Virus record (IMG/VR): IMGVR_UViG_3300036885_000228
Span: 1 to 30,367 of that record
Reading direction: 5' to 3' (one strand)
From: a virus
Taxonomy: Duplodnaviria > Heunggongvirae > Uroviricota > Caudoviricetes
DNA: 30,367 bases
Shown here: positions 3,381 through 24,592 of the stretch, piece by piece
Position numbering within the stretch: the first letter of the stretch is position 1
How the letters are laid out: every line of letters begins with the position of its first letter
Notes under the pieces: model-generated
Told to the model about the DNA's origin: nothing
Databases searched by the model: none
Seen by the model: the letters and a program-made list of their open reading frames with translations, nothing else
Made by a program: the position numbers and the translations under genes

Positions 3381-3900
3381 GTATAACAATTGTAAGAACT
3401 CTTTTAAGAAATGATGTAATGAATCATTGATTTTTTTACTAACGGTGGAATAAAAATATGTCAATAGATCAATCAAAAAACTATCAGGATTCTGAATTTC
3501 AGAAATCTTACAAAAAATTACGAAAAGGTGGAGATGGATCTGGTGGTGCAAGAGAAGGTGCTGGACGACCCGCAGGAAGTGGAGGAAAAGAAATGGGTGG
3601 AGGAAAAGAATTAGGAGGAAAGGAACCAGCAATAAGTAATAAGGTAGATAATAAGACTTATAATAGTATTCGTGATATTATTGAAGGACATTTTGCATCA
3701 GATGAAAAAGATTGGGATAAAGATACGAAAACAGCAATAACAAGATATGTTGCCAATCAAAAAGCAGGAATGTCAAATAGTAAGAATCTTGCAAATATTG
3801 GTGATAAATATGAATCAACGCTTTGGAGAAGAAATGGTGGAGAAAGTGGAATGTAATATATTAAGACCTCAAATATAAAGACTGTATAACAACTGTAAGA
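3381..3900 (+). repeat. Direct repeat pair GTATAACAA(T/C)TGTAAGA at 3381-3397 and 3884-3900
   Basis: 16/17 identical, with weaker similarity extending about 20 nt upstream; both intergenic, bracketing ORF 3458-3856. Confidence 0.7.
3458..3856 (+). CDS. KGG-motif protein 1, putative internal head/cargo protein
   Basis: EFQKSYKKLRK followed by GGDGSGGAREGAGRPAGS, shared with three other ORFs. Confidence 0.75.
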   Translation: MSIDQSKNYQDSEFQKSYKKLRKGGDGSGGAREGAGRPAGSGGKEMGGGKELGGKEPAISNKVDNKTYNSIRDIIEGHFASDEKDWDKDTKTAITRYVANQKAGMSNSKNLANIGDKYESTLWRRNGGESGM

Positions 3901-3929
3901 CTTACTTTATAAAATAACTTAACTCGTTA

Positions 3930-4274
3930 TTGATTTTTTGTTATATGATAGTAGAAGAAAAGACCTATAAATTCAAAAGGGAGAACTGGAAAGAGCTATT
4001 TAGAATAAATGTCTCATCTAAATTGGCAAGTAATGAAATAGAACTCCCAAGAGGATTTATCTATTATGAAACAGATATAGTGAGAGATATTGACGTTTAT
4101 TATTTATGGTTATTAATCCCTATAATGGTTCTGAAAGAAATTGCCACTAATATTTGGTACTTTATACCTAAAAAACTTTATCAGAATGGCCATTTAAGAC
4201 ATATAGAAGGAACTGCAACTAATTGGTTTTACTTTAAAGATATCAGTATAAGGAAAATACTTAAATCAAAATAA
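3930..4274 (+). CDS. Hypothetical protein (start may be ATG 3945)
   Basis: ORF track; central hydrophobic stretch. Confidence 0.6.
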   Translation: MIFCYMIVEEKTYKFKRENWKELFRINVSSKLASNEIELPRGFIYYETDIVRDIDVYYLWLLIPIMVLKEIATNIWYFIPKKLYQNGHLRHIEGTATNWFYFKDISIRKILKSK

Positions 4275-4347
4275 CACATCTTACCTAACGTTTAATAAAA
4301 TTTAGAAAACTGTCAGAATTGTTAACTAAGTTTAAGAAAACATTACT

Positions 4348-4839
4348 ATGGCTGGAAGAGGCGGATTTATGCCAGGAGGTGGACGACCAAAAGGCAGTAA
4401 ATCAAAGACGACAATTGAGAAAGAACATATAAGACAAGAGATACATCAAAGAGTTCTTAAAGGTTCTAAACGGATAATTAATAGCCAGTTCAATCTAGCA
4501 AATGGTTGTAGTTTTTTATATCGAATAGATAAAGATGAAAAAGGACATAATTCAAAACCTGTTCTAGTTAAAGACCAAGCAGAAATAGAGACTTATTTAT
4601 CTGGTGAATATGATGAGGAAGATACATATTACTTTATTACTACAGAGAAACCAGATATTCGAGCAATTCAAGATTTATGGGATAGAGTAATTGGTAAACC
4701 TCCCCAAGTTGTACAGGGAGATGAAGATGCACCGATTTACTCAATAGTCGTAAATAGATTTAATCCAAATGATAATAACGGAAAAACAAGCAATAAACCT
4801 GACGGAATTTCAGGACCGAGCAATATTCAGTCCAAGTAG
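4348..4839 (+). CDS. terS: Terminase small subunit
   Basis: N-terminal GGxxxGxGRPKGSK motif, AI..L.DR..GKP.Q motif, position directly before terL. Confidence 0.75.
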   Translation: MAGRGGFMPGGGRPKGSKSKTTIEKEHIRQEIHQRVLKGSKRIINSQFNLANGCSFLYRIDKDEKGHNSKPVLVKDQAEIETYLSGEYDEEDTYYFITTEKPDIRAIQDLWDRVIGKPPQVVQGDEDAPIYSIVVNRFNPNDNNGKTSNKPDGISGPSNIQSK

Positions 4840-6127
4840 ATTTGTTGCTATTATTTCTGGCATCCAAGGAGGGAAAACGTTTGCTGGTGCTATATGGTCT
4901 CGTTTACAATATGATGAATTTCAACAGGATGATGGATTAATTTGTGCACCAACATATAAAATATTATCACAATCAACATTACCGAAGTTCTTTGAACTAA
5001 ATCCAGATCTAAGAAAGTATTATAGAGAAGGAAGAGGGACAATTGAAGCTCCAGGTCGTGGTATCATATATATCCGATCAACTGAGAACCCAAACGTGAT
5101 TGAAGGTATGACATTACGTTGGATATGGGCAGATGAAGCAGGACAAATGAAACTCCAAGCTTGGATCAATATTCAAGGTCGTGTAAGTATATTGAAAGGC
5201 AAAGTATTCATAACATCAACACCATATAAGATAAACTGGCTTAGAACTGATTTCTTTGAAGCTTGGAAAAAGTGCAATTTAGACTATGATGTAGTTCAAT
5301 TTCGTTCAGTTGATAACCCTTATTTCCCTGCAGATGAATTTGAGAGAGTTAAAAATACGATGGATAGAAGGATATTCGAAAGACGTTATTGCGGATTATT
5401 CACAAAGATGGAAGGATTGGTGTATGAGGACTTTAACTATTCAGCAGCGTGTTCTGACAAATTGCCTAACAAGTTTGATACTGTGATAGGTGGAGTGGAT
5501 TGGGGATGGAATGCTCCTGCAGCAATAATTATAATTGGTATTCATGACAATACATATTATATTATAGACGAATTCTATCAAGAACATCAATCTACTGAAG
5601 ATCTAGCAAAAGTAGCATTAAGATTCAAAGACCAATATGGTGTTTCAATGTTCTACTGTGATAGTGCTGAACCAGATAGAATAGAAGTTTTCAAAAAGAC
5701 TGTAGAAGCAAAAGGATCAAATAAAGACATTTCCTTTGGTGTTGAAAAGATTCAAGGATTGATAAAAGAAGGGAAATTCATAGTTCATCCAAAATGCAAG
5801 TTCTTTCTTGAAGAAATAGAAGCATATCATTATCCTGAACAGAAAGAGAATAAAGCAGAGAAAGAGAATCCAGAAAAAGTAGATGATCATGCAATGGATG
5901 CAATGAGATATGCAATAGTTTCTTATTTGACACAAAACAAGATAATGTTTGTGCAACTTGAGGGAGATCGAAAGTATTTCAATCCAACACTAAATCGAGA
6001 ACCTTTACCTGCAATACCAGTTGCTAATGAGAATTTATCTGAGAAAGAAAGAGTAGAACAAATACGCAAACTCGATAGAGAGATAATTATTGAGGAAGAA
6101 CGTAAAAGATTTAATTCAGGGTATTAA
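4769..6127 (+). CDS. terL: Terminase large subunit (PBSX-like)
   Basis: Walker A SGIQGGKT, Walker B WIWADEA, ITSTP motif, RNase H-like GVDWGWNAP and DDHAMDAMRY. Confidence 0.95.
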   Translation: MIITEKQAINLTEFQDRAIFSPSRFVAIISGIQGGKTFAGAIWSRLQYDEFQQDDGLICAPTYKILSQSTLPKFFELNPDLRKYYREGRGTIEAPGRGIIYIRSTENPNVIEGMTLRWIWADEAGQMKLQAWINIQGRVSILKGKVFITSTPYKINWLRTDFFEAWKKCNLDYDVVQFRSVDNPYFPADEFERVKNTMDRRIFERRYCGLFTKMEGLVYEDFNYSAACSDKLPNKFDTVIGGVDWGWNAPAAIIIIGIHDNTYYIIDEFYQEHQSTEDLAKVALRFKDQYGVSMFYCDSAEPDRIEVFKKTVEAKGSNKDISFGVEKIQGLIKEGKFIVHPKCKFFLEEIEAYHYPEQKENKAEKENPEKVDDHAMDAMRYAIVSYLTQNKIMFVQLEGDRKYFNPTLNREPLPAIPVANENLSEKERVEQIRKLDREIIIEEERKRFNSGY

Positions 6128-6131
6128 AAAT

Positions 6132-6278
6132 ATGGCAAAATTAGGTTCAAAATTCTCAAAGGAATTATACCCTAATAGAGGAATGCGAAATAAAAAACAC
6201 TCGAAAGAAACTATAGAATTGAAATTTAAATGCAAAGATGGAGATAATACAATGGGAATCGGATTAGTAATTCTATGA
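6132..6278 (+). pseudogene. Remnant of a NUMOD3-type homing endonuclease
   Basis: GMRNKKHSKETIE NUMOD3-like motif in a 48-aa ORF with no nuclease domain; its TGA overlaps the FkbM ATG. Confidence 0.55.
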
Positions 6279-6901
6279 GTGAAATAAATACACTATATAA
6301 TAAGCTCTATAGAAAATTAGTATTTGACATTGGTTCGAATGTTGGAGACATGACAAAGAAATATTTGGACTTAGGAGCGGATATAGTTGTAGCAGTAGAA
6401 CCACAATTAGAATGCTTTGACAGCCCAAACTATAGTGAAGCAATTTGCGTAAATAAAGCAATATCAAATATATCAGGACAAAAGATAACGTTCTATCGGA
6501 ATAATCGTTCAGCAATATCTTCATGTTCTAATAGATGGTTAGAAGGCAGATTTAAAGGACAACAATGGAAAGAGGAAGAAGTAGAAACAATTACATTAGA
6601 TGATTTAATCAAGCAATATGGAGTTCCTTATTTTATCAAAATAGATGTTGAAGGATATGAGAGGATGGCATTAGAAGGTCTATCACAAAAAGTAGAATAT
6701 CTATCAATTGAATATACTGAAGAGTTAAAAGATGAAACTCTTAAGTGCATTGAAATGCTAGAAAAACTAGGATATGAGAAATGTACGATTATAGATGAAT
6801 ATCACAATAGGCCAATTAAAGATTTAGATAATATAGAACAAGTAAAAGAGTACCTAAACATATTAGACTACTTAGATTGGGGAACACTTTTATTTTACTA
6901 A
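6275..6901 (+). CDS. FkbM-family SAM-dependent methyltransferase
   Basis: VFDIGSNVG, AVEPQ, TITLDDL, IKIDVEGYE motifs. Confidence 0.9.
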   Translation: MSEINTLYNKLYRKLVFDIGSNVGDMTKKYLDLGADIVVAVEPQLECFDSPNYSEAICVNKAISNISGQKITFYRNNRSAISSCSNRWLEGRFKGQQWKEEEVETITLDDLIKQYGVPYFIKIDVEGYERMALEGLSQKVEYLSIEYTEELKDETLKCIEMLEKLGYEKCTIIDEYHNRPIKDLDNIEQVKEYLNILDYLDWGTLLFY

Positions 6902-6904
6902 ATT

Positions 6905-7504
6905 ATGTCAAGAAATACTTTAAGTATTATCACATCATGTTCAAGGCCAGAAGCAATCTTTGATGTTTATGAGTCAGTGAAAGGATCAGTTAAAAAACTT
7001 GAAGATAGAACTTATAATATTTACTGGTACATAATTTACGACGGTGAAAAAGTAAAAGAAGCAAATAAAAGGAACTTTACAGATGAAGATGCTTGGATTA
7101 TTGAAGGTTCTACAAGTGAAGTTAGTAAAGGATATAAGCAACGGAATTTTGCTCTTGACATGATTAAAGATGGATGGGTATGTTTCTTAGATGATGACAA
7201 TATAATGCATCCAAATTTTTACACTGAAATATCTAAGCATTTAGATGAAGACTTAAATGGGATTGTAATTGATCAGATTTTCAAATTTGGTAATAATCGA
7301 TTAGTTGCAAGACTAGAGAATATGAGAGTTTGTAATATTGATATTGCCCAATACATTCTGAGACGTGAATATATTGGGGATAAACGATTCGACATTGAAT
7401 ATTGTGCTGATGGACATTTCATTGAAGACTTATATCGAGCAAATCCAAAAAAGTTTCTATTTATCAATCAACCACTTTGCTATTATAATTATTTAAAATC
7501 ATGA
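6905..7504 (+). CDS. GT-A fold glycosyltransferase (GT2-like)
   Basis: IITSCSRP start, RNFALD, WVCFLDDDN (DxD), ADGHF. Confidence 0.85.
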   Translation: MSRNTLSIITSCSRPEAIFDVYESVKGSVKKLEDRTYNIYWYIIYDGEKVKEANKRNFTDEDAWIIEGSTSEVSKGYKQRNFALDMIKDGWVCFLDDDNIMHPNFYTEISKHLDEDLNGIVIDQIFKFGNNRLVARLENMRVCNIDIAQYILRREYIGDKRFDIEYCADGHFIEDLYRANPKKFLFINQPLCYYNYLKS

Positions 7505-9194: not shown

Positions 9195-9752
9195 ATGTCA
9201 ACAATATTTTTAAATGAAAAGGAATCTTCTTTTGCTAAAGCATACAAAGAAAGTCTTTCTTCTGAGATAACAAAAGGTGGTCCAGGAAGTGGTGGAGCAA
9301 GGGAAGGAGCAGGTAGACCTTCTGGAAGTACCAGTGAGAATGGAGGGGGAAATCACGGTATGAGAGATGAAGAGATTGAAGATAAGTATGATAGGATGAA
9401 TTCTTCAGAACAGAGAGAATATGATAGATTAAATAATAGTGATAATCCTTCAGAACAAATACAGGCACAATCAATGATTGAAAATGTAGAAGATGAAGTT
9501 CCGAGTTGGGCAGAAGATGCAGATGAAGAGGAGGTTGAAGTAGAATTATTATCTAGTGGTCAAAGTGTACCGGTAAATATTACTGAGTCAATGAGAGAAG
9601 CATTTGGTGATTCAAGAAGTGCAAATGAAGCAGTTAATAGATTTTTAGATGACCCAAGTAATGCTAAATGGTTCGATGACAAATATAGTGGAAATGAATT
9701 TGATCTAAAACATGATATTGAAAACTTAGTTAATCCACGTACTAGAAGATAA
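9195..9752 (+). CDS. KGG-motif protein 2 with acidic body, putative internal head/cargo protein
   Basis: SFAKAYKESLSSEITK followed by GGPGSGGAREGAGRPSGS; D/E-rich remainder. Confidence 0.75.
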   Translation: MSTIFLNEKESSFAKAYKESLSSEITKGGPGSGGAREGAGRPSGSTSENGGGNHGMRDEEIEDKYDRMNSSEQREYDRLNNSDNPSEQIQAQSMIENVEDEVPSWAEDADEEEVEVELLSSGQSVPVNITESMREAFGDSRSANEAVNRFLDDPSNAKWFDDKYSGNEFDLKHDIENLVNPRTRR

Positions 9753-10008: not shown

Positions 10009-10079
10009 CAGGGTATGGTATAAAGGAATTACGTCTGGTTTGGGACCAGATAATCGTGGTTCGATTCCACGTGCCTTGA
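10009..10079 (+). tRNA. tRNA-Pro (anticodon TGG), CCA not encoded
   Basis: Acceptor CAGGGTA/TGCCTTG, anticodon arm TCTGG-TTTGGGA-CCAGA, T arm CGTGG-TTCGATT-CCACG. Confidence 0.9.
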
Positions 10080-10085
10080 CAAAAT

Positions 10086-10158
10086 AGCAGGGTAGAGAAA
10101 TTGGAATCTCGCTTGGCTCATAACCAAGAGATTATCGGTTCGAGTCCGATCCCCGCAA
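10086..10158 (+). tRNA. tRNA-Met (anticodon CAT), initiator-like, CCA not encoded
   Basis: Anticodon arm CTTGG-CTCATAA-CCAAG, T arm ATCGG-TTCGAGT-CCGAT, 1:72 mismatch; only two of the three initiator G-C pairs in the anticodon stem. Confidence 0.9.
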
Positions 10159-10188
10159 CTAATACAAATTAAGGTGGCATAAATTACT

Positions 10189-13100
10189 ATGGAAGATGTA
10201 GAAAAATTTATAATAACAAAACAATCCGAGGGAGTTGTTGACACGATGAAAAATGCTTCGGTCAATATTAAAAAAGCAATCTCTGATAGAGGAGAACCCC
10301 GTGCTTTAGTTCTTGACCCGGGAAAACTTTTTTATCGTACAACCGAGAAGGGAATTCGTAAACCTACTAGAATTACATTCCAGACTCTTAGGAGAATGTC
10401 AAAGGCAGTTCCAGTTGCTCGTTTATGCATTAACACTCTTAAGCATAAAGTCACACAAACTCCTTGGTCAATTAAACCAAAGAAGGGAGAAAAACAGGCA
10501 GATAAAGAACATAGTCGATTAGTTGAAGAGTTATTGACTAATCCAAATCGAAACCGTGAAACATTTAGAACTTTTCTTGATAAAGTTGTAGAGGACTTAT
10601 TAGTATTAGATGCTGGGTGTTTTGAGAAAGTAAAAAATAAAGGAGGAGAACCATGTGAGTTATATTACGTCGATGGGTCGACGATCAAACCGATGTATGA
10701 TATTCATGGAATATTGGGAGAACCGGCATATGTACAATTCATGCCAATGAACTCCGCAAATATACCTGATGCCGAATGGGATTATGATGAGTTCGTTTAT
10801 ATGATGCAAAATCCCCAAGCAGATATTCAGAACTTTGGGTATGGTTTATCTCCACTTGAAGGAGTGATAATGGTTGCCACGAATGCATTAAATGCAGATA
10901 ATTACATGGGACAATTCTTTGATGTTGGTACTCTCCCGCCGAAACTTATAAATTTAGGAAAAGATGTCTCACCAAGTGAAGTAGAATTATTTAGAGCAAT
11001 ATGGAAATCTGAAATAGAAGGAAAGCCCTGGAAAACTGCTATTACTGGAGGTAGTGAAAAAATGGAAGTTATCGACATGGGAAATGGCAAACCTGCAGAT
11101 ATGCAATTTGAGAATTACCAGACCTGGTTGATGAAACTAATGTGTGCCGCTTATGAGATAAGTCCTCAAGATATTGGAATGACTGCAGAAATGGGATTGA
11201 ATAGAGCATTAGGAGAAGTCCAGCAAAATATTTCAAACAATAAAGGATATCGTACAATATTAAATGTATTGAAAGAAACAATAAACATGCAAATTGTGCA
11301 TGAATGGTTTGACTTTAATGATGTTGAATTTGATTGGGTGGGATTAGACAATATTGATCAACTTAATGCAGCAAATATTTTTAATATCGAAAGTAAATGT
11401 GGTGCAACTTCAATCAATGAATATAGAATATCAAAAGGATTAGAACCAATTAAAGGAGGAATTAGTCCTTTCATTATAACTGGTACTGGACAAATTTCAA
11501 TTGATTCAACACCTCTTGATGATATTGATGAAACCGAAGTTATTGCAGAAGAAGAAAATGTAGAAGCACCAGTTGCTGAAGAAGGAGAACAAATTGATGA
11601 AACAAAAGACACATCAAAACCTAAAGTTGAAGAGAAACATATACATAAGGAAGGTGAAAGATCTACACAATTAGATGATATCCGAGGATTAAGAAGTGAG
11701 ATAGGATATGTGACACCAAGAAGTATGGATGATTCAAGTGATTCTGAAACAACTTCAAAATCCTGGGTTGAAAAGAAAGTTCATACTCCTGATGATTATA
11801 TTTGCTGGGTTGATGACAGAGGATTTGGTCAACCATTTATTTTTACTGATAAGTTTGGAAAGAATGGATATGTAATCAAACCTCCAGTTGCAGTGAATAT
11901 CAATGCAATGGAGAAAGAAGTACAAATTACTCATGAAATGAATGATGCTGGATTGAATGTTTTACCAGTTGACATAATGACACCAAAAGATATAAATGAA
12001 TCATTGTTTCCATCTATAAAGATTAAACAAGAATTTGAGAATTATCAATTGATGACTCCCGAATATGATAGTAAGAAATGGGAAGCTAAATTTGGACATT
12101 CAAGAGTTTACGACAAATATAGTGTAATGCAATACATCAAAGGAAGGATATTGAATGATTCTCTACAATTAGAAGACATGAAGAGAGTTCCTGATGAATA
12201 TCAAAAAGCAATTTTAGATTTAGTTGCATTGTGGAAATATGAGAAAGAAAAAGGAATGGGAGATAGAAGAGCAAATCAATATATCATAACTCCCGATAAG
12301 AGAGCTTATGGTTTCGACTATCAGTTTGATGGTAATGAAAAAGCTTGGGCTAAATATGAGTTTAGTATTCCAAAAGCTTTAGCAGGAATCCCAAAACTCT
12401 ATGATGCTTTTATGCGGGAGTCTGGATTAGAAGTTGAGGACATGAAGAAATTTATTACCAAAGGTGGTGAAGGATCAGGAGGTGCACGTGAAGGAGCTGG
12501 TCGTCCTGCAGGTTCTGGAAGTAAAGAAACTTCAGAAGTATTAACTCAAATAAACGTAGGTGGAAAATTAGTCGATATCACTAGAGAAAATTATAATGAG
12601 CATCGCAATTTGTTAACAAGAAGAATGAGACAGGAATTAGATATTAAAACTGAATATGTTCCGCCTTGGAAGAAATCAATCGAAAAAGAAACTAAGATAT
12701 ATACTGAATCTGATGCTTCCAGAATTGGAGATGAATTAGGAGTAAATTGGGCACAAACAGATGTTAATGAATTTGTAACGGGATTGAATGAAGAACAGGA
12801 ACATAAAGACGTAATTGGTGATGACGAAAATTTATTAGGTAAAATTGTTCTTGCACACTTGAATGAAAAACCAGATTATTATACCAGATTAGAAGAGGCA
12901 ATGAGTAAATCTAAAAAAAAAGTAGATGGGAAGGATATTTTGCATAATGGTTGTGGGTGTGATGAATGTAAGAAAACAACTAGAATAAAAACAGAAAAAG
13001 CAATTAAGAACGATGAACATTGGCATGATTTCTGGCACAAGAAGGTAAGTGTTCCAGAAACTAAAATGATTGCACATTTAAAGACACAAAGCAAACAATT

Positions 13101-13860
13101 AAAATCAAATATGGCAAGAGTAATTAAAGACGAACTAGTTACTCGAAAAGCTATAGTTCCAGATAATGTTCTTACTGAATCTGCAAATGCGGTTCCTGAT
13201 TCTGATATTGCACTTAAATACACAAAGACAATGGATAAGATGTATAAGAGTGCATTTGAGATTGGTATAGATAATTTTCTCGTAAAAGCAGAAGACCAAT
13301 TAAAGCATAAAGGAATTACGAAAGAGATGCTTTATGAGATAGTTGGAAAGAAAAAAATATCAAAAGCAATTGAACGTTCAGGATTGTATGACAAATTAAA
13401 AGAACGAGGAACGAATTTAATCACAACAGTAGTTGGTAATAAGCAAAAGAAATTAGTTTCTTATATTCAGGATAGATCAGATAAAGGAGATCCAATGGAT
13501 GAGATATCTAGTGATGCTATGGAAAAATTTGCTCTCCCATTAGAAGATTATGAGGTTGAATGTATTGCAAGAACTGAAACTGCCTGGGCAGCAAATCAAG
13601 GATCATTAGAAGCAGGAAGTGAATTAGGTATTGATAATTTCGAAATAATTTTAGACCCTGATGTCTGTCCAGGTTGTCAAGATGCATATGAAAAATCAAA
13701 TGGAGAAGGAGATGTATTTACCAGTGAAGAATTATCTGACATTGGTGAACCTCCACTTCATCCAAATTGCAGATGTATAGTCGAACCATATATTGATGCA
13801 GACAATTTAGATGATTTAGCAAATAACATAATCGAACAGGCTGGTGGTGATCCTGAATAA
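10189..13860 (+). CDS. Portal protein fused to a kinase-like domain, KGG motif, DUF5661-like domain and MuF (Phage_Mu_F) head morphogenesis domain
   Basis: N-terminal HK97-type portal motifs (LYYVDGSTI, FGYGLSPLE, YEISPQDIG, SINEYR). C-terminal IARTET...CPGC...PPLHPNCRC is MuF. Middle domains are described under findings. Confidence 0.9.
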   Translation: MEDVEKFIITKQSEGVVDTMKNASVNIKKAISDRGEPRALVLDPGKLFYRTTEKGIRKPTRITFQTLRRMSKAVPVARLCINTLKHKVTQTPWSIKPKKGEKQADKEHSRLVEELLTNPNRNRETFRTFLDKVVEDLLVLDAGCFEKVKNKGGEPCELYYVDGSTIKPMYDIHGILGEPAYVQFMPMNSANIPDAEWDYDEFVYMMQNPQADIQNFGYGLSPLEGVIMVATNALNADNYMGQFFDVGTLPPKLINLGKDVSPSEVELFRAIWKSEIEGKPWKTAITGGSEKMEVIDMGNGKPADMQFENYQTWLMKLMCAAYEISPQDIGMTAEMGLNRALGEVQQNISNNKGYRTILNVLKETINMQIVHEWFDFNDVEFDWVGLDNIDQLNAANIFNIESKCGATSINEYRISKGLEPIKGGISPFIITGTGQISIDSTPLDDIDETEVIAEEENVEAPVAEEGEQIDETKDTSKPKVEEKHIHKEGERSTQLDDIRGLRSEIGYVTPRSMDDSSDSETTSKSWVEKKVHTPDDYICWVDDRGFGQPFIFTDKFGKNGYVIKPPVAVNINAMEKEVQITHEMNDAGLNVLPVDIMTPKDINESLFPSIKIKQEFENYQLMTPEYDSKKWEAKFGHSRVYDKYSVMQYIKGRILNDSLQLEDMKRVPDEYQKAILDLVALWKYEKEKGMGDRRANQYIITPDKRAYGFDYQFDGNEKAWAKYEFSIPKALAGIPKLYDAFMRESGLEVEDMKKFITKGGEGSGGAREGAGRPAGSGSKETSEVLTQINVGGKLVDITRENYNEHRNLLTRRMRQELDIKTEYVPPWKKSIEKETKIYTESDASRIGDELGVNWAQTDVNEFVTGLNEEQEHKDVIGDDENLLGKIVLAHLNEKPDYYTRLEEAMSKSKKKVDGKDILHNGCGCDECKKTTRIKTEKAIKNDEHWHDFWHKKVSVPETKMIAHLKTQSKQLKSNMARVIKDELVTRKAIVPDNVLTESANAVPDSDIALKYTKTMDKMYKSAFEIGIDNFLVKAEDQLKHKGITKEMLYEIVGKKKISKAIERSGLYDKLKERGTNLITTVVGNKQKKLVSYIQDRSDKGDPMDEISSDAMEKFALPLEDYEVECIARTETAWAANQGSLEAGSELGIDNFEIILDPDVCPGCQDAYEKSNGEGDVFTSEELSDIGEPPLHPNCRCIVEPYIDADNLDDLANNIIEQAGGDPE

Positions 13861-14403: not shown

Positions 14404-14430
14404 ATTAAATAGTCGGTGGATATAAATATT

Positions 14431-16509
14431 ATGGGAGAAAATGATTTCAAGAAATTTTTTAAGGAGACATTATCGACTGAATCGATAATTGAAAAAGCAA
14501 GTAAAGGAATTCAATTTGTCTTGGGTTTCCCTAAAGGTGGGGAAGGTTCTGAAGTTCAATCTGTTCTTTTCGATAAGGATAATTGGACAACAGCAACTGC
14601 TCAGGCTTGGTTAAAGTCTCATGATTTTTCTGGGACTGAAGTAGATGAAAAAGAAAATACATTGAGGTTTAGACAGAAAGATCCGGGAAAGTATACGAGA
14701 TTTGCAACTATTACTCCTGGAACTAAGAAGCAAAGAGATTTCATGGATTCAATTCAAGATGACAAGACTAAGAAAATGGATGGTAATGATACATACGAAG
14801 GAGGCAATGGTGGGAATGTTGATTCATTAGAACAACCACACAAACCATTAAAACCTGGTCAGAAAACACCTGCTACAAAAAAATCAATTATTGATTTATC
14901 TGAAGTTGAAGAGTTTAAGAAAACTGGTGGTGCTCCATTTCAATTCTTTATTGAAAAAGCAAGCATGTCAGAGAGTGGAGAAATGCAAACAGTGATTGTT
15001 AGAAAGATCGACGGTACTGTTTTGAGAAAACAACAGTTACCAGAACATTTATATGTTGAAGGATTAGCTACGACAACGAATGTCGATCATGATCAAGAAA
15101 GAATGTCTCCAGAAGCTATTCAAGCAATGGAGGCTGAAATAAATAAAAACGGTGTGCCTCTTATCTCTGAACATTCAAAGGAATGGGACGGTGTATTAGG
15201 CAAGGTGTTCGAGGCAAGAGTAGATGACAGAAATCAATTACACATAAAAGCTGAGTTAGATAAAGATATGTCTAAATCAGTTGATTTATACAACGCCCTC
15301 AAGAAAGGAGCTCAACTCGGTCTGTCCATCGCAGGCATAGTTAAGAAAGCTGGACTTGAAATGGTCGAAGGGGTTGGAAAGAAATGTAAGACATTTTATG
15401 ATGTCTTGCTAAAAGAAGTTAGCGTCACTGGCAGACCAAGCAATTTCGATACCTGGTTAGTTGCTAAAGGAATTGCTAAATCAAGAGAAAGTGGGTTATA
15501 CGACAAGTACCTTAATACAGATTCGTATCAAGAATATTTGAAGTCAAACCCTCGGCTTGATTGGCAGTATTCAATTGCAAAGTCTGTTCAAGATGATGTG
15601 CTAAATAAAAACATTTTAAATATGGATGTTATAAAGAAAGAAGAAACTTCAGCGGACGTTAAGCCTGCTGAAGAGAAAACAGAAGAAGTGAAGGAAGAAG
15701 TAAAAGTTGAAGATACTAAAGCTGAAGAAGTGAAAGTAGAGGAAGTCAAGACTGAAGAAGTTAAAGCTCCTGAAGCTGAAACTGAAAAAGCTGAAGTTGA
15801 AAAAGATACTGTTGATGCAGACATTGAAAAGTCAGTTAGTGAACAAGTTGCAAAAGCGAAAGCTGAAACAATTAGTTCTGCAGTTGACGAAGTTGTTAAA
15901 TCGAGAATCGGAGCTATTGCTGCTAAAGCAAAAGCAATTGCTATGAAGCATTTAGACAATGCTTTTAAAGCGATGGGTGGTGATGAATCCGAAACAACTT
16001 CAGACACTGAAGATACTGAAACTAAACCTGCTCCTGCAAAGAAAACAAAGAAAGCTATTGCTGACAGTTCTACTTCAGAAGACACTTCAACTGAAAAGGA
16101 AATGGATTCTGATACAGATTCATCTGAAACAGAAACAAAACCTGCAGCGAAGAAAACCCAAAAAGCTAAACCTGCTCCAAAGACTGAAGATACTGATACA
16201 ACTGAAACTGAAGATGATGAAAGTGAAACCACTTCAAAATCTTTTGTTCAAGCAATCGTATCTGGAGTTACTGCAAATCTTGAAAAGAAACAAATGAGAG
16301 TCATTGGAAATCTTCAAGAAGCAGTAGAAAAGATGATGCAAGTGCCAAATGCTCGCAAGGGTATCGCAATTGCAATGGAGAAGAAGTTTGTTGGTAATGC
16401 AATCGAAGAACAAGTTGAAGAGGGAAAAGTTGAAAAATCCGAAGGAGTTAAAAAGACTGAATCCTTCCAAGATTATTTCAAGACTAATTTTTCCTCAGAG
16501 AAAAAATAG
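14431..16509 (+). CDS. HK97-type prohead protease fused to an acidic scaffold region (start ATG 14431 or GTG 14416)
   Basis: LYVEGLATTTNVDHDQE, LISEHS (catalytic His), GLSIAG (catalytic Ser), EVSVTGRPSN; long E/K/T/D-rich repetitive C-terminal half. Confidence 0.9.
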   Translation: MGENDFKKFFKETLSTESIIEKASKGIQFVLGFPKGGEGSEVQSVLFDKDNWTTATAQAWLKSHDFSGTEVDEKENTLRFRQKDPGKYTRFATITPGTKKQRDFMDSIQDDKTKKMDGNDTYEGGNGGNVDSLEQPHKPLKPGQKTPATKKSIIDLSEVEEFKKTGGAPFQFFIEKASMSESGEMQTVIVRKIDGTVLRKQQLPEHLYVEGLATTTNVDHDQERMSPEAIQAMEAEINKNGVPLISEHSKEWDGVLGKVFEARVDDRNQLHIKAELDKDMSKSVDLYNALKKGAQLGLSIAGIVKKAGLEMVEGVGKKCKTFYDVLLKEVSVTGRPSNFDTWLVAKGIAKSRESGLYDKYLNTDSYQEYLKSNPRLDWQYSIAKSVQDDVLNKNILNMDVIKKEETSADVKPAEEKTEEVKEEVKVEDTKAEEVKVEEVKTEEVKAPEAETEKAEVEKDTVDADIEKSVSEQVAKAKAETISSAVDEVVKSRIGAIAAKAKAIAMKHLDNAFKAMGGDESETTSDTEDTETKPAPAKKTKKAIADSSTSEDTSTEKEMDSDTDSSETETKPAAKKTQKAKPAPKTEDTDTTETEDDESETTSKSFVQAIVSGVTANLEKKQMRVIGNLQEAVEKMMQVPNARKGIAIAMEKKFVGNAIEEQVEEGKVEKSEGVKKTESFQDYFKTNFSSEKK

Positions 16510-16840: not shown

Positions 16841-19834
16841 ATGGATAAAGTTAATCAAGCATTGGATAGATTCGAAAAAGCAGTCGATATTTCTTTCGCG
16901 GGTGGAATTCCGAATAGCATTTTAGCTAGACAGGATTTGGAAGCCGCAATCGTGAAACTTACCTATCGTGAGACTCCTCTCAGAGACATTGTCACAAGAG
17001 TCAAAGGTGAAGGTAGAGCACATTTGTGGAACCAAAGAATCAAATTAGGTTCTAACCCTGCAGAACTTACAACTGCTATGTTCTATGCCGATGGAGGAAC
17101 TCCTACGTTTTCAGATCCAGTTTATGTTCAAAAGACGGCCGCATATAAATACCTTAAACAAATTCTGAGGCATATATTTGTGAAAATATATGAAAATTTG
17201 GCTATATCGGTGAAACTCTTACATTGAGACAATACCGAGGGAAGATTCTAAAAATATTTAGAGAACCCGTAGAGACTACACGCCAAACACTTTATGCTTG
17301 AGATCCTTTACAAATATTGACAAATATGTTATAATATACTATATGAATAAAACATTAATCTGTCAAATTTGTAATAAAAACTTTGTAGTTAGAGATGGTT
17401 CAACTGCTAAATTTTGTAGTTATCATTGTTATTGGATATCGAAAAAGGGACGTAAATGGGGAAGACCATTTATTAAAGGTGGAAAATCTTGGAATTCGGG
17501 GAAAACCGGTTTGCAAATTTCACCATTTAAAGGTTTAACCAAATACGATCACCCAAGTCTGATGTCAAATTCAATAAAAAATTCTGAAAAGACAAAACTT
17601 CAGTATTTAAGAACTGGCAAAGAACAATGGTTATTAGATCGGAAAAGGTTTACTAGAAAAGGAAAGAAAAATTCTGATAAACAAAAGAATGCAGCAAGAA
17701 TTGCAATTCATAAGACAATAGAAAGTGGTAGATTAAGACAAAAATATCATGATACAAATATTGAAGTTAAAGTTGCCAATATTCTAAAAGACTTAGGAAT
17801 ACAATTTGAAAAACAAAAAAGAATACCGAAGATTGTCACACCTGATTTATATATACCGATAATTGATACACATATTTTCTGTGATGGTGATCATTGGCAT
17901 TCATTAGCAAATGTAGTTAAGCGAGACTTATTTGTTAATTCAAAATTGACAGAACTACAAATTAAATTTATTAGATTCAAAGGTTCTTTAATTTTAAAAG
18001 AACCTGATAAAGTAAAAGATCTCATTTTAAAGTTGATGATATAGTCCGAACTCTATGGTGACATAGAGAAATAAATAGAAATATTTATTCGATTACATCA
18101 TGTAATTCGTAACATACTGGGAATTGCGGCAAATATTACTGGACCCATGATTGCGAGTGGACGTTCGTTCACAGATATAGAAGCAGAAGTTGCAGAGGCT
18201 AAACTTCGCCAGGTTATTCAGGGCGAGGAATGGGCCCTATTTCACGGTGACTCTGTAGTCGATCCTTTGCAATTTGATGGACTTGATACACAATTAGTTT
18301 CTAACGTCATCGACAAAAGCGGTGCTGCGTTGAACCTTGAAGATGTCTGGAAAGCTGTAAAGCTTATCAGATTACAAGGTGGACAACCGACACACGTCTT
18401 TTGTTCCTTCGGCGTTCAGAATCAATTGAACTCTTTGCTTATTGGTGATCTGAGATATATTGCTCAGCAAGGTACAGTCGTTACAATGGGATTGAATGCA
18501 AATAACATTCAAACTCCTGCTGGCGTCTTACCTTTGATTGGTGATTTCTTCATCAACCCGAGCTCTCCTTACCAATACAACCAAGCTGGTTCTTCTGGCC
18601 CTCAAGGCAACTCTGTTTCTAGCGTTTACGTGTTAAACGTTCCAGAAATAAATATGGTTAAATCAAATTGACCATACAAAACTTCGCTATATCGGGGAAA
18701 GCTAAATCTAGTATTCTTGCTAGACATGTCAATCCCGAGGCAACCTACACATTGTAGAGAGTCCGTAGAGACTACACGCGAAGAATAGAAATTTTCTATT
18801 ATGATATAGTCCGACCATACGGGAAACCGTATGAGCAAGATAGAAATACTCTTGCAATACCAAATGGTAGATTAACAATTTAGGATTTGATGCCAATCGG
18901 GCGCACAGAACTTGCGAAAGTCGCAGACACGGTTAGATTTTACATAAACGAATACACGTCTATGGCCGTAAACTTTTGCGGCATATGATTGTGAAATCAT
19001 ATTAAAAATTGAGCTATATCGGAAAAACTCCCAACTGAAATAAGTGGACAATTCCGAGGAAAGACTTATAAATTATAAGTATCCGTAGAGACTACACGCT
19101 CGATATCTAAAAATCATGAAATGTTTAAATTGTAAGATTGAAGAAGCAAAAAGAGGTTGTCAATTCTGTTCTAAGAGTTGTCGATATTCTTATTTTTCTG
19201 GTGATAGAAATCCAGCTAAAAGAAAGGATGTCAGACAAAAACTTAAAGAAAAAGCTAGAATTAGAGAATTGAATCCTGACTATTCTTTAAAATTATGGCA
19301 ACGAAATAAATACGGTTGGATAACTAAAACCTGTTTATTTTGCAATACTGAATTTTCGACTCGTAGATGCTATCATCGGAAGTTTTGTTCATTCAATTGT
19401 AGTAAATTATATCATGTAGGCAAGAATCATCATTTTCCATATATTGAACGAAAACCGGGTGCCTATGGATATAATTGGCCAGAACAAAAAAGAAAAGTAA
19501 AAGAAAGAGATAAAAATATTTGCCAAATCTGTGGAAAAAATCAATCACAAAATTTTGGACAAAATATGGATATTCATCATCTTATTCCTTTTCTACTTTT
19601 TACTTCATATGAACAGGCTAACAAGTTAGAAAATCTTACAAGTCTATGCATTGAATGTCATAGACGTCAGAAAAGAAAACTTTCATGGTTTAGAGATAAT
19701 GATATAGTCCGAACTGCATTGGAAGATGCAGAGATAGACAGAAATGTTCTATCACTACTAAAAAGTAGTTAACAAATCGAAAAGCTGAACCTTGGCAAGC
19801 AGTTATCAAGAACGTTAGCGATCCGAATTCCTAA
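16841..19834 (+). CDS. Major capsid protein, spliced: exons 16841-17155, 18120-18659, 18884-18969, 19780-19834 (996 nt, 331 aa); SU10/SPO1-like HK97 fold
   Basis: Joining exons at U|...G| junctions gives a continuous frame: AAYKYL|GIAANITG, EINMV|DLMPIGRTELAKVADTVRFYINEYTSMAV|KAEPWQAVIKNVSDPNS*. Position after the protease; QFDGL and LAK..D.VRF motifs typical of this capsid family. Confidence 0.88.
17307..17335 (+). promoter_or_regulatory. Sigma70-type promoter inside intron 1
   Basis: TTTACA-N17-TATAAT with TGt extended -10; ATG 17343 lies 7 nt downstream. Confidence 0.7.
17343..18044 (+). CDS. Intron-encoded homing endonuclease (Zn-finger + DUF559/Vsr-like, EDxHD-type)
   Basis: CQIC...FCSYHC; T.IE..V..IL..LGIQFE.Q...PDLYIP...FCDGDHWH...RD. 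Confidence 0.85.
   Translation: MNKTLICQICNKNFVVRDGSTAKFCSYHCYWISKKGRKWGRPFIKGGKSWNSGKTGLQISPFKGLTKYDHPSLMSNSIKNSEKTKLQYLRTGKEQWLLDRKRFTRKGKKNSDKQKNAARIAIHKTIESGRLRQKYHDTNIEVKVANILKDLGIQFEKQKRIPKIVTPDLYIPIIDTHIFCDGDHWHSLANVVKRDLFVNSKLTELQIKFIRFKGSLILKEPDKVKDLILKLMI
18660..18883 (+). ncRNA. Group I intron 2 (224 nt, ORF-less)
   Basis: P1 TGGTT|/GACCA, P10 TCAAATT/GATTTGA, P3 TTCGC/GCGAA, P7 GAGACTA (18768)/TAGTC (18807), terminal G. Confidence 0.92.
18884..18969 (+). CDS. Major capsid protein exon 3 (86 nt; absent from ORF track)
   Basis: DLMPIGRTELAKVADTVRFYINEYTSMA + GT, bounded by predicted splice sites. Confidence 0.85.
18970..19779 (+). mobile_element. Group I intron 3 (810 nt) with HNH endonuclease ORF
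   Basis: P1 GCCGT|/GCGGC, P10 CTTTT/AAAAG, P2 ATATGATT/AATCATAT, P3 TTGAGC/GCTCGA, P7 GAGACTA (19088)/TAGTC (19705), terminal G. Confidence 0.92.
19116..19772 (+). CDS. Intron-encoded HNH homing endonuclease with Zn fingers
   Basis: CQICG...DIHHLIPF...NKLENLTSLCIECH; N-terminal CxxC/FCSxxC repeats. Confidence 0.9.
   Translation: MKCLNCKIEEAKRGCQFCSKSCRYSYFSGDRNPAKRKDVRQKLKEKARIRELNPDYSLKLWQRNKYGWITKTCLFCNTEFSTRRCYHRKFCSFNCSKLYHVGKNHHFPYIERKPGAYGYNWPEQKRKVKERDKNICQICGKNQSQNFGQNMDIHHLIPFLLFTSYEQANKLENLTSLCIECHRRQKRKLSWFRDNDIVRTALEDAEIDRNVLSLLKSS
19780..19834 (+). CDS. Major capsid protein exon 4 (55 nt; absent from ORF track)
   Basis: A + KAEPWQAVIKNVSDPNS*; completes the phase-2 GTA codon. 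Confidence 0.85.
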
Positions 19835-19854
19835 TTGAATTCAAAATTCGTATA

Positions 19855-19883
19855 CTGTGCTTCATAATAAAAATGGAGCACAG
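19855..19883 (+). terminator. Hairpin after the capsid gene (terminator or mRNA-stabilising stem)
   Basis: CTGTGCTTCAT/ATGGAGCACAG 11-bp stem; no U-tract. Confidence 0.4.
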
Positions 19884-19893
19884 GAACGAGTAA

Positions 19894-20304
19894 ATGAATA
19901 TTAAAATAAGTATTGTATTAGTGATTATTTTCTCATTAATTGGAATTGCTGTATTACCTTATTTTTCAGAAGGAGATGAACAGATAGCTCAAACAATTGA
20001 TACAGTACAAAATTATTTACCGGTAAATCAGGCCTGGCCTACACAAGATGAAATCAAAACCTACATCACCCAAGAAGCTTTAAAACATGGGATAAGTCCG
20101 ATGGTAGCTTTACGTATTGCAAATTGTGAAAGTGGGTATGATAGATTAGTAAAGAATCAAAATTCTACAGCAACTGGAATTTACCAGTTCTTAGATTCTA
20201 CTTGGGAACATAATTGTACAGGAAATAGATTAGATCCATACGCAAACGTTGATTGCTTTATGGATAATTATATAAGACATAAAGACTGGTGGGTCTGCAA
20301 ATAA
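19894..20304 (+). CDS. Lysozyme-like/SLT lytic transglycosylase with N-terminal membrane anchor
   Basis: ALRIANCESG (catalytic Glu), NSTATGIYQF..STW; hydrophobic N-terminus. Confidence 0.8.
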   Translation: MNIKISIVLVIIFSLIGIAVLPYFSEGDEQIAQTIDTVQNYLPVNQAWPTQDEIKTYITQEALKHGISPMVALRIANCESGYDRLVKNQNSTATGIYQFLDSTWEHNCTGNRLDPYANVDCFMDNYIRHKDWWVCK

Positions 20305-20308
20305 AAAT

Positions 20309-20608
20309 ATGAATGAATTTCAGAAAAATTTTAAAGAGAATTTATCAATTGAGTCAATACTAAAAGGTGGACCAGGGTCTGGCGGTTCTAGAGAAGGTGC
20401 AGGTAGGCCTTCTGGTTCTAGTAATGAACCCAGTGGTAATGAAAAAGAAGCAATAAACACAACTCACGATTTACTCGGTCAAGGACATAGTGAAAACGTA
20501 ATATTAAATAAATTGATAATGTATTTTCCTGAAATATCCGAATATGATTTAGAAAATATAATGAATAATGTCAAATCTGGAAATTTAAAAAGGCAAGACA
20601 TGACATAA
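20309..20608 (+). CDS. KGG-motif protein 3, putative internal head/cargo protein
   Basis: EFQKNFKENLSIESILK followed by GGPGSGGSREGAGRPSGS. Confidence 0.75.
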   Translation: MNEFQKNFKENLSIESILKGGPGSGGSREGAGRPSGSSNEPSGNEKEAINTTHDLLGQGHSENVILNKLIMYFPEISEYDLENIMNNVKSGNLKRQDMT

Positions 20609-21959: not shown

Positions 21960-22013
21960 AGAATATACATAATTGAGATTCTAATTCATCTGAAGTCATT
22001 CAGATGACATCAA
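21960..22013 (+). promoter_or_regulatory. Bipartite repeated element, copy 2
   Basis: AGAATATACAT-N13-ATTCATCTGAAGTCATTCAGATGACATCAA; the 30-nt part is 27/30 identical to copy 1. Confidence 0.6.
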
Positions 22014-22036
22014 AACTGATTAGATTGTTAATATAT

Positions 22037-22774
22037 ATGAAAATAACGGTGGTAATACCAGTTTTTAACCTTTACTTGGAATTCACTAAAAACTGTATAA
22101 AGTCAATACTAAATCAAAACGTACCTGACGAGTATAACGTGAATATTTTAGTAATCAATAATTGCTCAACTGACAATACATCAAATGAAGTAAAAGAATT
22201 GATTAGTTATAATTTACCAATACAGATAATAGATAATCCAGAAAATTATGGATGTGCTAAATCATGGAATCAAGGAAGTAAAGTTGCGTTTGATGAAGGG
22301 TCGGATTATGTATTTATAATCAATAATGATGTACTGTTTCAACGTAGCTGTATCGCAAATCTTGTTAAGAGATTAGAGTTAAATGATGATGTCATTTTAG
22401 TTTCAGCAAAACATGTCAATACTCCTGAAGAAGTCAATCATGAATTAGTACTACCATTTACTGAGGTTGAATCACCCAGTTTTTCTGCATTCATGATTGG
22501 ATGTAACTGTTGGGGATTGATTGGAAATTTTGATGAAGAATTTAAACCTGCTTATTTTGAAGACAATGATTATCATTATAGAATAAAATTAGCAGGTAAG
22601 AAAGCAATAACGACTTCTACAGCAATATATCATCACTTTGGTTCTAGAACACAAAATCAATTACCTGGAGGAGTTTGCAGATCACAACAGTTTGAGAATA
22701 ATAGAGCATATTTTGCAAAGAAATGGGGTGGAGTTCCTGGAAAGGAAATCTACAAAACACCATTTAGTATGTAA
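22037..22774 (+). CDS. GT2 family glycosyltransferase (likely start ATG 22037)
   Basis: ITVVIPVFN, ILVINNCSTD, NYGCAKSWNQG, IINNDV, FDEEF.PAYFEDNDY. Confidence 0.92.
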   Translation: MKITVVIPVFNLYLEFTKNCIKSILNQNVPDEYNVNILVINNCSTDNTSNEVKELISYNLPIQIIDNPENYGCAKSWNQGSKVAFDEGSDYVFIINNDVLFQRSCIANLVKRLELNDDVILVSAKHVNTPEEVNHELVLPFTEVESPSFSAFMIGCNCWGLIGNFDEEFKPAYFEDNDYHYRIKLAGKKAITTSTAIYHHFGSRTQNQLPGGVCRSQQFENNRAYFAKKWGGVPGKEIYKTPFSM

Positions 22775-23335: not shown

Positions 23336-24592
23336 ATGAAAGCGGTGATAATAGACAAAAAATACAGTAATAGATATTATTGGGTGAAAGATTCAACAAA
23401 AGGACACTACATAAATTTTCATGACTATCAAGCAATTGTGAATTCTTCTGAAGCAGTTGAACTTCTTAAAAATGATGAGTTTCAATTCATTCCAGAATTA
23501 TCAGATTATGCATGTGTATTTAATCCCGAGACATGGACTGAGAAATATAAAAAATTGTATTGGGAAGCAAATGCAGACATCTATTCAGGATTTGGAAGTG
23601 TTTCAATGAATGCAGTCAAATCATTATCAAAAAATGGAATTGATGTATGTTTTGGGGGAGAAAGATTTGATGAAAAGACATTTCCCGATAAAGAATTTGA
23701 TGCACTTAAAAAGAATACAGATCCAGATTGTATAATGATACAATATCGTCAACCCGGTCAATATCGGAGGAAGATGACAGAACGAATGTTTGGTTATACA
23801 CCTTGGGAGACTACAAAAATACCAGATTCTTGGATAGACCGAATGAATGAGATGGAAGGTATATTTACGACATGTAAACAAAATAAAGAAGCATTTATTA
23901 ATAGTGGAGTAACAGTACCAATTTATGTTTACTATCATGGTATTAATCCGAAAGATTATCCATTTATAAATCGTCCCGAAGATCCAGTTTGGGTTTTTGG
24001 TACACTTGGACGTCTTTCAGTTAGAAAAGGAACTGACTTGGTTGTGAAAGCATTCAAGGAAGAATTCAAAACTGAACGAGATGTTGCTCTAATACTTAAA
24101 TCAAGTGATGCATTAGTACCATTTGAAGGAATTAGTAATTTAAAAACTACAAGAGATCCAAGAATTACAGTCATCGGTGAAGTATTAAGTCATGAAAAGA
24201 AATTAGAATTATATAAGACAATAGATTGTTTCGTATTCCCTTCAAGAGGTGAGGGATTTGGTCTTCCTCCTCTAGAAGCAATGGCAACAGGATTACCAGT
24301 AATCATGACGAATTGGGCAGGACTTTCAGAATTTGGAAATGTAGAAGATACAATGCTATTGGATTATAAGATGACTAAGGCTGAAAATTTTACTAAACAA
24401 ATTTACAAAGAAGATTGCGGATATTGGTCAGAACCAAATTTTGAACAACTAAAAAAGTATATGAGATGGTCTTATGAACACAGAAAAGAATCAAGAGAGA
24501 TGGGAGAAAAATCAAGTAAGCGAATTAATAAAGACTGGACTTGGGATAAAGTCACTAATAAATTCATCAAACAGATTAATAAAATAATTTAA
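23336..24592 (+). CDS. GT-B fold glycosyltransferase (GT4-like)
   Basis: YTPWETTKIP, YYHGI, FGTLGR...RKG, DCFVFPSRGEGFGLPPLEAMATGLPVI. Confidence 0.92.
   Translation: MKAVIIDKKYSNRYYWVKDSTKGHYINFHDYQAIVNSSEAVELLKNDEFQFIPELSDYACVFNPETWTEKYKKLYWEANADIYSGFGSVSMNAVKSLSKNGIDVCFGGERFDEKTFPDKEFDALKKNTDPDCIMIQYRQPGQYRRKMTERMFGYTPWETTKIPDSWIDRMNEMEGIFTTCKQNKEAFINSGVTVPIYVYYHGINPKDYPFINRPEDPVWVFGTLGRLSVRKGTDLVVKAFKEEFKTERDVALILKSSDALVPFEGISNLKTTRDPRITVIGEVLSHEKKLELYKTIDCFVFPSRGEGFGLPPLEAMATGLPVIMTNWAGLSEFGNVEDTMLLDYKMTKAENFTKQIYKEDCGYWSEPNFEQLKKYMRWSYEHRKESREMGEKSSKRINKDWTWDKVTNKFIKQINKII

Follow-up and report, generated by a model that had tools for sequence, protein, structure and literature searches.

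A protein-kinase-like domain in the portal fusion of an uncultured phage and its possible role as capsid cargo

Introduction

Why should the portal protein of a tailed phage carry a domain that resembles a protein kinase? The question is raised by a 30,367-nucleotide stretch of DNA (the window), which is the first 30 kb of the 94-kb IMG/VR virus record IMGVR_UViG_3300036885_000228 (estimated completeness 77%), from an uncultured phage of the class Caudoviricetes. In this window a single open reading frame (ORF) joins a portal domain, a DUF5661 domain and a MuF minor head protein region, and between the portal and DUF5661 lies a segment, called K here, in which an initial annotation, made from the letters alone, had recognized the ordered motifs of a HipA/PI3-4K-like kinase. 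As set out below, K is a genuine conserved domain, it almost certainly has a protein-kinase fold, and it is on balance a probable capsid-packaged atypical phosphotransferase of the portal/MuF polyvalent cargo type, with catalysis, release and delivery all being predicted.

Proteins carried in the capsid act before phage genes are expressed and are therefore prime candidates for taking over the host or disabling its immunity. Effector domains fused to portal and MuF proteins, 2H domains among them, are described as travelling inside the head, with injection being probable (PMC5512222), and the concept of polyvalent proteins is also found in PMC9503650. Surveys of MuF toxins list no kinase (PMC5576092).

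K is a conserved domain

The segment spanning residues 525-758 is a genuine conserved domain, and its likeness to kinase motifs is not a matter of chance. A HMMER scan of 1.84 billion cluster representatives returned 24 clusters homologous to residues 515-775 (21 of them at E<1e-10), all from uncultured sources, which makes K a rare family. In IMG/VR, 26 loci with K were found and another two were added by a scan with the portal, for which an alignment served as the query; a single-sequence portal query gave no match. Three weak or fragmentary matches, on two Chloroflexi/Anaerolineae metagenome-assembled genomes, were all that GTDB genomes yielded, so they offer no clue to the host. A profile of the family places K at nucleotides 11746-12462 (E 3.5e-104), in good agreement with the span of 11761-12459 first proposed, and every motif quoted in support of that proposal was located in the translation where it had been reported: WVDDRGFGQPFIF at residues 540-552, YVIK at 561-564, MEKEVQ at 574-579, GLNVLP at 588-593, SVMQYIKG at 645-652, GDRRANQYII at 691-700 (with D692) and AYGFD at 706-710 (with D710).

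Conservation was read from an alignment of 34 sequences with a minimum pairwise identity of 24% and a mean of 41%. Despite this divergence, D542, D543, R544, G545, P549, G560, K564, E577, S628, R639, D677, E685, G691, D692, R693, G708, D710, Y711 and F713 are the same in all 34. Taken with the structural results below, the best explanation is that the K family is a very divergent and previously undescribed member of the protein-kinase-like superfamily.

A predicted protein-kinase fold

Structure prediction leaves little doubt that residues ~525-758 adopt a protein-kinase fold. An AlphaFold2 (AF2) model of K from the window, built on a 15-sequence alignment, has a mean predicted local distance difference test score (pLDDT) of 84.4 and a predicted template-modelling score (pTM) of 0.81, with five models falling between 82 and 84. 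The kinase fold was reproduced in a second AF2 model, made for a relative that is ~27% identical (P0014, residues 470-880; pLDDT 86), the input alignments of the two models overlapping to a large extent. The bilobed architecture that the initial annotation had anticipated, with helix C next to a five-stranded sheet in the N-lobe, a hinge, and the catalytic loop in a helical C-lobe, is thus borne out by two models and by their structural neighbours. When the window model was searched against the Protein Data Bank (PDB) with Foldseek, the count of matches at E <= 0.001 was 500; the 50 of them that are listed are kinases without exception, among them PRPK/Bud32, PknB, APH(3'), actin-fragmin kinase, PI3K and numerous protein kinases of eukaryotes. 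Among the neighbours listed for the ESM Atlas (Pkinase, ABC1 and Kdo/APH/RIO clusters, with template-modelling scores of 0.52-0.55) and for the viral models of BFVD, almost all are kinases, and in a language-model embedding the named clusters that lie closest to K are APH, OspG, ABC1/RIO1 and YrbL.

A scan of 48,161 chains with VIA-align, which is independent of Foldseek, led to the same group of folds. For the window model the leading neighbours were Bud32 (Z 11.0, 180 residues aligned at 4.5 A), Rio1 (11.0), APH(2'') (10.8) and actin-fragmin kinase (10.2), followed at lower scores by YihE and WaaP (both 9.6), Vps34 (9.4) and PI4KII-alpha (9.2). For the relative they were actin-fragmin kinase (11.5), Bud32 (11.2), PI4KII-alpha (10.9), Rio1 (10.6) and Vps34 (10.0). 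With either model the alignments to kinases span 166-200 residues, and the top Z scores are 11.0-11.5. These results support the original label of HipA/PI3-4K-like only in part: PI4KII-alpha and PI3K are statistically tied with the best neighbours, and HipA is not among the best 50 matches listed for the window model or for the relative, so kinship with HipA is not supported. A likeness to PI3/4-kinases is possible and is not separated from the likeness to Bud32, RIO, APH and actin-fragmin kinase, all of which lie within ~1-2 Z units.

Two features distinguish the models. A helical insert of ~45 residues stands between strands 4 and 5 and holds the invariant S628 and R639 together with W631 (33 of 34 sequences), and the DFG-like DYQF is followed in the AF2 model by only ~45 residues of helices. 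This short C-lobe leaves no room for an activation segment, and K would accordingly be classed, from its model, as a minimal kinase like Bud32, RIO and OspG.

Sequence searches found no comparable kinship. At E<=10, a Pfam search with 15 K members matched no kinase family (none of PF00454, HipA_C PF07804, APH and Kdo), and a PHROG scan of K alone gave a single weak match, to phrog_7834, whose function is not assigned (E 0.0036). Searches of PDB sequences with K, both by single-sequence phmmer and by profile hmmsearch, returned noise. With hhalign, the K family gave no alignment to single WaaP and SrkA sequences of E. coli, and the 34-sequence family, set against 25 RIO1-family kinases of Chloroflexota in global and local mode, reached a probability of <1% in a wrong register. 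PF01163 (RIO) has no match in the phage record.

The candidate active site

In its sequence and its models, K is predicted to keep a working-looking phosphotransfer site (Table 1). As no residue alignment to a known kinase was obtained, the equivalences rest on secondary-structure position. The elements follow the canonical order of strand-3 Lys, helix-C Glu, catalytic loop and DFG, and D692 and D710 are 18 residues apart. In protein kinase A (PKA), the spacing from D166 to D184 is likewise 18, and the position five residues after the catalytic Asp is a metal-binding Asn.

K564, D692 and D710, which the initial annotation had picked out, are unchanged in all 34 sequences and sit in the window model on the canonical secondary-structure elements. 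Of the two Glu residues that had been offered for helix C, E577 is conserved but E575 is not. The caveat that the usual His and Asn positions are occupied by other residues also holds: position 694 is Arg in 26 sequences and Lys in 8, and position 697 is Gln in 25 and His in 9, while position 696 varies between Asp, Asn and Gly. Elsewhere in the site variation is rare, with Q712 of DYQF and Q548 of the hairpin loop each present in 33 of 34 sequences and the remaining DDRG..P positions of that loop in all of them. That all four catalytic residues have stayed the same in two deeply separated subfamilies speaks for catalysis.

Table 1. Features of the portal fusion and associated genes. Nucleotide positions are those of the window; numbers in the first column are protein residues, and model positions equal the protein residue minus 519.
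Feature	Position	Strand	Evidence or remark
Large terminase	4769-6127		
Fusion ORF: portal / kinase-fold domain (K) / DUF5661 / MuF	10189..13860	+	1223 aa, no internal stop
Portal domain, 76-413	10414..11427	+	Pfam Phage_portal PF04860, E 4.5e-26
Acidic Ser/Thr-rich linker, ending SDSETTSK (K524); candidate maturation-cleavage site directly before K	11629..11760	+	
Protein-kinase-like domain K, 525-758	11761..12462	+	AF2, Foldseek, VIA-align, family profile
Strand 1-strand 2 hairpin loop DDRGFGQP, 542-549; place of Gly-rich nucleotide loop	11812..11835	+	between model strands 18-22 and 31-35
K564, candidate ATP-anchoring strand-3 Lys	11878..11880	+	34/34; last residue of model strand 41-45
E577, candidate helix-C Glu	11917..11919	+	34/34; within first helix, model 54-67
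Catalytic-loop-like GDRRANQY, 691-698; D692 candidate base	12259..12282	+	after long helix 149-169, before strand 179-181
DYQF, 710-713, DFG-equivalent; D710 candidate metal-binding Asp	12316..12327	+	directly after model strand 187-189
Gly-rich 19-aa peptide after K758, GGEGSGGAREGAGRPAGSG...; second candidate processing or linker element	12463..12519	+	
DUF5661 domain, 843-903	12715..12897	+	PF18905, E 3.6e-15
MuF (SPP1 gp7-like minor head protein) region, ~966-1219	13084..13845	+	custom hidden Markov model of fused homologues
697-aa ORF with E/K-rich and S/T/D/E-rich C-terminal half; putative scaffold-like protein	14416..16509	+	DESETTSK-SFV peptide

A variable slot behind the portal

The fusion ORF belongs to a head-morphogenesis gene block, with terminase, portal and capsid genes close by. 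Its portal domain shares 27-29% identity with those of Herelleviridae, Bacteroides DAC and Chryseobacterium phages, Phage_Mu_F (PF04233) matches residues 1119-1198, and PHROG families for portal, minor head and head-morphogenesis proteins are all matched; between residues ~480 and 840 the Pfam scan of the ORF has no match. That K lies inside a portal-MuF fusion, as originally described, is true of the window, but in most homologues it is a C-terminal domain of the portal with no MuF attached. K stands directly after the portal in the full-length members. The commonest architecture is portal-K (~720-840 aa). Several loci each have portal-K-MuF, portal-DUF5661-K-MuF or portal-2H-K-MuF, the order portal-K-DUF5661-MuF is found in the window and its two closest relatives, and there is one case of K-MuF from which the portal is absent.

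Whether portal homologues differ in this insert was one of the checks put forward in the initial annotation, and they do. Among the best 80 portal relatives in IMG/VR, K is present in 24 of the 26 with at least 36% portal identity. The two exceptions are L072 (IMGVR_UViG_3300035454_001409, 3905-7000) and L076. The former is the closest relative without K; its portal is 55% identical and is followed by DUF5661, a module of ~270 aa and MuF, the module having neither a Pfam match nor similarity to K. The latter encodes a plain portal of 525 aa. The other 54 portals, which are more distant, either have the usual size of 440-480 aa or bear other additions. Where 2H is present (P0014, P0019 and L026, residues ~480-610), it directly precedes K and is confidently folded, and its structural neighbours are LigT, CPDase, Acb1 and viral cGAMP/2-5A phosphodiesterases, a poxvirus cGAMP phosphodiesterase among them, with Z scores from 16.0 to 11.4. 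The slot after this portal clade thus behaves as a swappable cassette, which may be filled by K, by a 2H phosphodiesterase, by DUF5661 or by a module of unassigned kind.

Two portal loci have further peculiarities. In the portal-K phage L024 (6641-7444), MuF is a separate ORF in another frame, whose sequence shares ~30 nt with the end of the portal-K ORF; either the fusion was split recently or, possibly, it is joined here by a frameshift. In L098 (3860-6295), an 812-aa portal homologue has a LAGLIDADG_3 domain (566-631) between portal segments, which suggests an intein or a homing endonuclease in the portal gene.

Other genes of the window, which has a G+C content of ~32%, can be noted here. 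Adjacent genes for tRNA-Pro(TGG) and tRNA-Met(CAT) were found by ARAGORN and Rfam at 10009-10159, directly upstream of the start codon of the portal fusion. From 16841 to 20304, major-capsid-like pieces (e.g., 18147-18671, phrog_752) alternate with HNH endonuclease ORFs (17298-18044 and 19116-19772); at the gathering threshold, Rfam detects no intron family in this region. The head-gene block also includes a 136-aa ORF (19894-20304) with an SLT lytic-transglycosylase domain (PF01464, E 1e-06), and two glycosyltransferases (22004-22774 and 23336-24592) lie amid head genes. A methyltransferase-like ORF is located at 6275-6901.

Candidate sites of release

The C-terminus of the portal faces the capsid interior, so ejection of a domain attached there requires cleavage. 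Cleavage of the fusion at K524 and K758 would fit the peptides that flank K. The linker peptide SDSETTSK-SWV, which ends at K524, resembles DESETTSK-SFV near the C-terminus of the 697-aa ORF (nt 16222), and in the closest relative (L067) a downstream ORF has similar Ser-rich ends of the form ...STSK-S. On the other side of K, a near-identical Gly-rich peptide of 19 aa, K-GGxGSGG[AS]REGAGRPxGS, is one of four copies in the window: three follow short leaders in the ORFs 3458-3856, 9195-9752 and 20309-20608, and the fourth follows K itself. None of the related loci fetched has this peptide, which may act in this phage alone as a signal for capsid targeting or processing. A functional tie between K and the Gly-rich peptide was considered and dropped, the peptide being specific to this phage.

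What might K do?

The proposal considered on balance probable is that K is a capsid-packaged phosphotransferase carried as portal/MuF cargo. Made as a C-terminal extension of the portal, K would be present in ~12 copies in each procapsid and would face the interior. It would then be freed at the flanking Lys-Ser/Gly sites (K524 and K758) and leave the capsid together with MuF and the DNA. In the host it would act at the start of infection as an ATP-dependent phosphotransferase on a host target, in the service of takeover or counter-defence. Ejection and the nature of the substrate are inferred here, as is catalysis.

Several points weigh against this proposal. None of the sequence methods (Pfam, PHROGs, PDB searches and hhalign) ties K to a kinase family. 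Neither the canonical Asn (D+5, Q697 in K) nor a GxGxxG loop is present; the loop reads DDRG..QP, with two acidic residues in the place of the Gly-rich loop, and both the change of Asn to Gln or His and an acidic loop occur in some pseudokinases or in enzymes of altered chemistry. The substitutions can also be read as marks of a pseudokinase, an ATPase switch or altered chemistry. In cells, Bud32 and RIO act largely as ATPase switches. No protease was found, the ORF 14416-16509 having neither a Pfam nor a PHROG match, and if the predicted cleavage did not take place, K would remain attached to the portal, with no possibility of ejection. Among portal-K phages, MuF is the next gene in L024 only, and most have no detectable MuF fused or downstream. 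Finally, blastn and tblastn searches of 50,697 cultured-phage records found no carrier of K, which leaves the family without an experimental handle.

Each of the alternatives draws on some of these points. That K serves head assembly, as a nucleotide-binding switch or pseudokinase rather than as an injected effector, is rather unlikely overall. Tethered to the portal crown inside the procapsid, such a domain could, by binding or hydrolysing ATP as RIO and Bud32 do, time the assembly of portal, MuF and scaffold or their maturation, or it could be a structural plug, and in either case it would stay in the capsid. The best neighbours Bud32 and Rio1, the minimal fold with its short C-lobe and no activation segment, the Gln or His at the Asn position and the DDRG loop are all in keeping with this, as are the commonness of portal-K proteins that end after K, without a MuF detected further downstream, and the tight tie of K to one portal clade (24 of 26 portals at the identity threshold given above). 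Against this stand the invariance of all four catalytic residues and the behaviour of the slot, in which K is dispensable or replaceable (an unrelated module in L072 and none in L076), its order relative to DUF5661 flips and an Acb1-like 2H domain is paired with it in some proteins, as would be expected of a cargo cassette rather than of a core assembly part. At the other extreme, it is hardly credible that the kinase-like motifs are accidental and the segment a linker or an unrelated fold; the failure of sequence methods to find a kinase family would fit this, but two confident AF2 models, four structural searches (Foldseek, VIA-align, Atlas and BFVD) that return almost only kinases and motif residues kept across 34 homologues all oppose it.

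The remaining alternative concerns substrate and chemistry. That K is a kinase-fold enzyme whose substrate is not a protein, or whose chemistry is non-canonical, is unlikely. The substrate could be the head group of a lipid or an inositol (as with PI3/4-kinase-like enzymes), a sugar or a glycan of the envelope (as with WaaP/Kdo-like enzymes), or a nucleotide or immune second messenger, and its reaction could alternatively be AMPylation/NMPylation, as in SelO and NiRAN. The L-G-D-R-[RK] loop resembles the textbook motif G-D-R-H of PI3/4-kinases; with the second model, PI4KII-alpha, Vps34, PI3K-gamma and ATM align at a low rmsd of 3.2-4.0 A over 176-191 residues (Z 9.1-10.9); and the small-molecule kinases APH, MPH, MTR kinase, choline kinase and WaaP score as high as protein kinases. 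Nidovirus replicase polyproteins are found among the BFVD matches, and sister proteins pair K with a 2H phosphodiesterase of the cyclic-nucleotide type. However, the Z scores do not separate these families from Bud32 and RIO, there is no Pfam match to PI3_PI4_kinase, APH or Kdo, and the variant in which K is an RNA 5'-kinase is unlikely. A more specific form of the idea is somewhat less likely still: K would be a portal-tethered enzyme like PI-kinases or actin-fragmin kinase, with Gln or His for Asn and a DDRG loop, which is released by the prohead protease, injected, and used for counter-defence on a host molecule other than a protein, for example the head group of a lipid or a nucleotide that signals in immunity, alongside the fused Acb1-like 2H domain in sister phages.

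Two more specific roles were tried and set aside. A 5'-kinase for RNA repair, suggested by the 2H partner and by a structural match to Ark1, is disfavoured, since an RNA-ligase-like gene and, ~1.7 kb downstream, an AAA_33 P-loop kinase are already present in the phage; a Metallophos phosphatase partner for RNA repair was sought and not found. The other, action of K on the acidic Ser/Thr-rich tract of the scaffold-like protein, was rejected as such tracts occur only in the closest relatives and not across K-bearing phages. The RNA-ligase-like protein (PHA02142 OB domain) and the AAA_33 kinase lie at ~51870-55120 of the same phage, outside the window, and are likely to be an RNA end-healing and sealing pair. 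An ATP-dependent DNA ligase is found at ~65.6-66.5 kb.

Comparison with known systems

In its fold, K is closest to the small kinases and shares features with several families. Like Bud32/PRPK and RIO, it is small, lacks an activation segment and has a Lys/Glu/Asp/Asp core (Z 11.0-11.2 for Bud32 and 10.6-11.0 for Rio1 over the two models). It differs from RIO in that the RIO loop reads HGDLSxYN, with Asn, and is accompanied by a STGKEA-type P-loop, whereas the loop of K is GDR[RK]xx[QH], and no sequence kinship was detected; it also has the extra insert between strands 4 and 5, and its context is a phage capsid rather than the ribosome or KEOPS. With PI3K/PI4K and actin-fragmin kinase, K shares a catalytic loop that opens with G-D-R and a distance of 18 residues from it to the DFG-like Asp, and in the two models the Z scores are 10.2-11.5 for actin-fragmin kinase, 9.2-10.9 for PI4KII-alpha and 9.4-10.0 for Vps34, values that are not above those of other kinase families. 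Unlike PI3K/PI4K, it has Arg or Lys for the His of DRH and Gln or His for the Asn, no PF00454 match and no accessory domain of the helical or FAT type. A tie to HipA finds no support in the loop of K, which has neither the His nor the Asn of DxHxxN, or in the Pfam search, which gave no HipA_C match.

A kinase has been described in phage polyvalent proteins before, in a clade that is reported to be without the whole C-terminal subdomain, to have an insert between the conserved His and Asp and to show a signature of S/T/Y kinases in its sequence (PMC5512222). Like that clade, K is a kinase-superfamily domain in a polyvalent phage protein, with conserved residues for ATP binding and phosphotransfer and a proposed role in modifying host proteins. 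It differs in having a short helical C-lobe, in having no conserved His before D692 (L-G-D-R) and in giving no Pfam kinase match at the threshold used here.

Phage enzymes that modify the host early offer a functional analogy. The kinase gp0.7 of T7 rewires host proteins early in infection and is expressed after entry, not packaged. Alt of T4 is an ADP-ribosyltransferase that a capsid-targeting leader, rather than fusion to the portal, directs into the head; the prohead protease trims it, and it enters the host along with the injected DNA. The likeness of K to gp0.7 and Alt is one of function only, and no homology was found. The T7 kinase is also the precedent cited in PMC5512222.

What K means depends on its activity. 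If active, it would be a compact (~230 aa) atypical kinase with an unusual solution for metal ligand and nucleotide loop, a test case for the release of portal-fused cargo and possibly a new phage counter-defence activity. If inactive, it would be a further case in which virus assembly has turned a kinase fold into a structural part or a switch. Should it prove to be injected and to act in counter-defence on a non-protein molecule, it would be the first injected kinase-fold anti-defence enzyme delivered via the portal.

The closest parallel in organization is provided by the portal/MuF effector proteins (PMC5512222), in which an enzymatic domain shares one polypeptide with portal and/or MuF and the contents of the slot vary. 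The prediction for both is alike: the protein would be packaged in the head and probably accompany the DNA on delivery. K is not among the families listed for those proteins (PBECR, 2H, InPase, ART and Nudix), the fusions described here have few domains, and K stands between portal and MuF or at the C-terminus of the portal and not C-terminal to MuF. The K family, which has no Pfam or PHROGs entry and no cultured carrier, thereby extends the set of portal/MuF cargo domains, adding a new kinase-fold family and a new type of cargo to a known kind of system.

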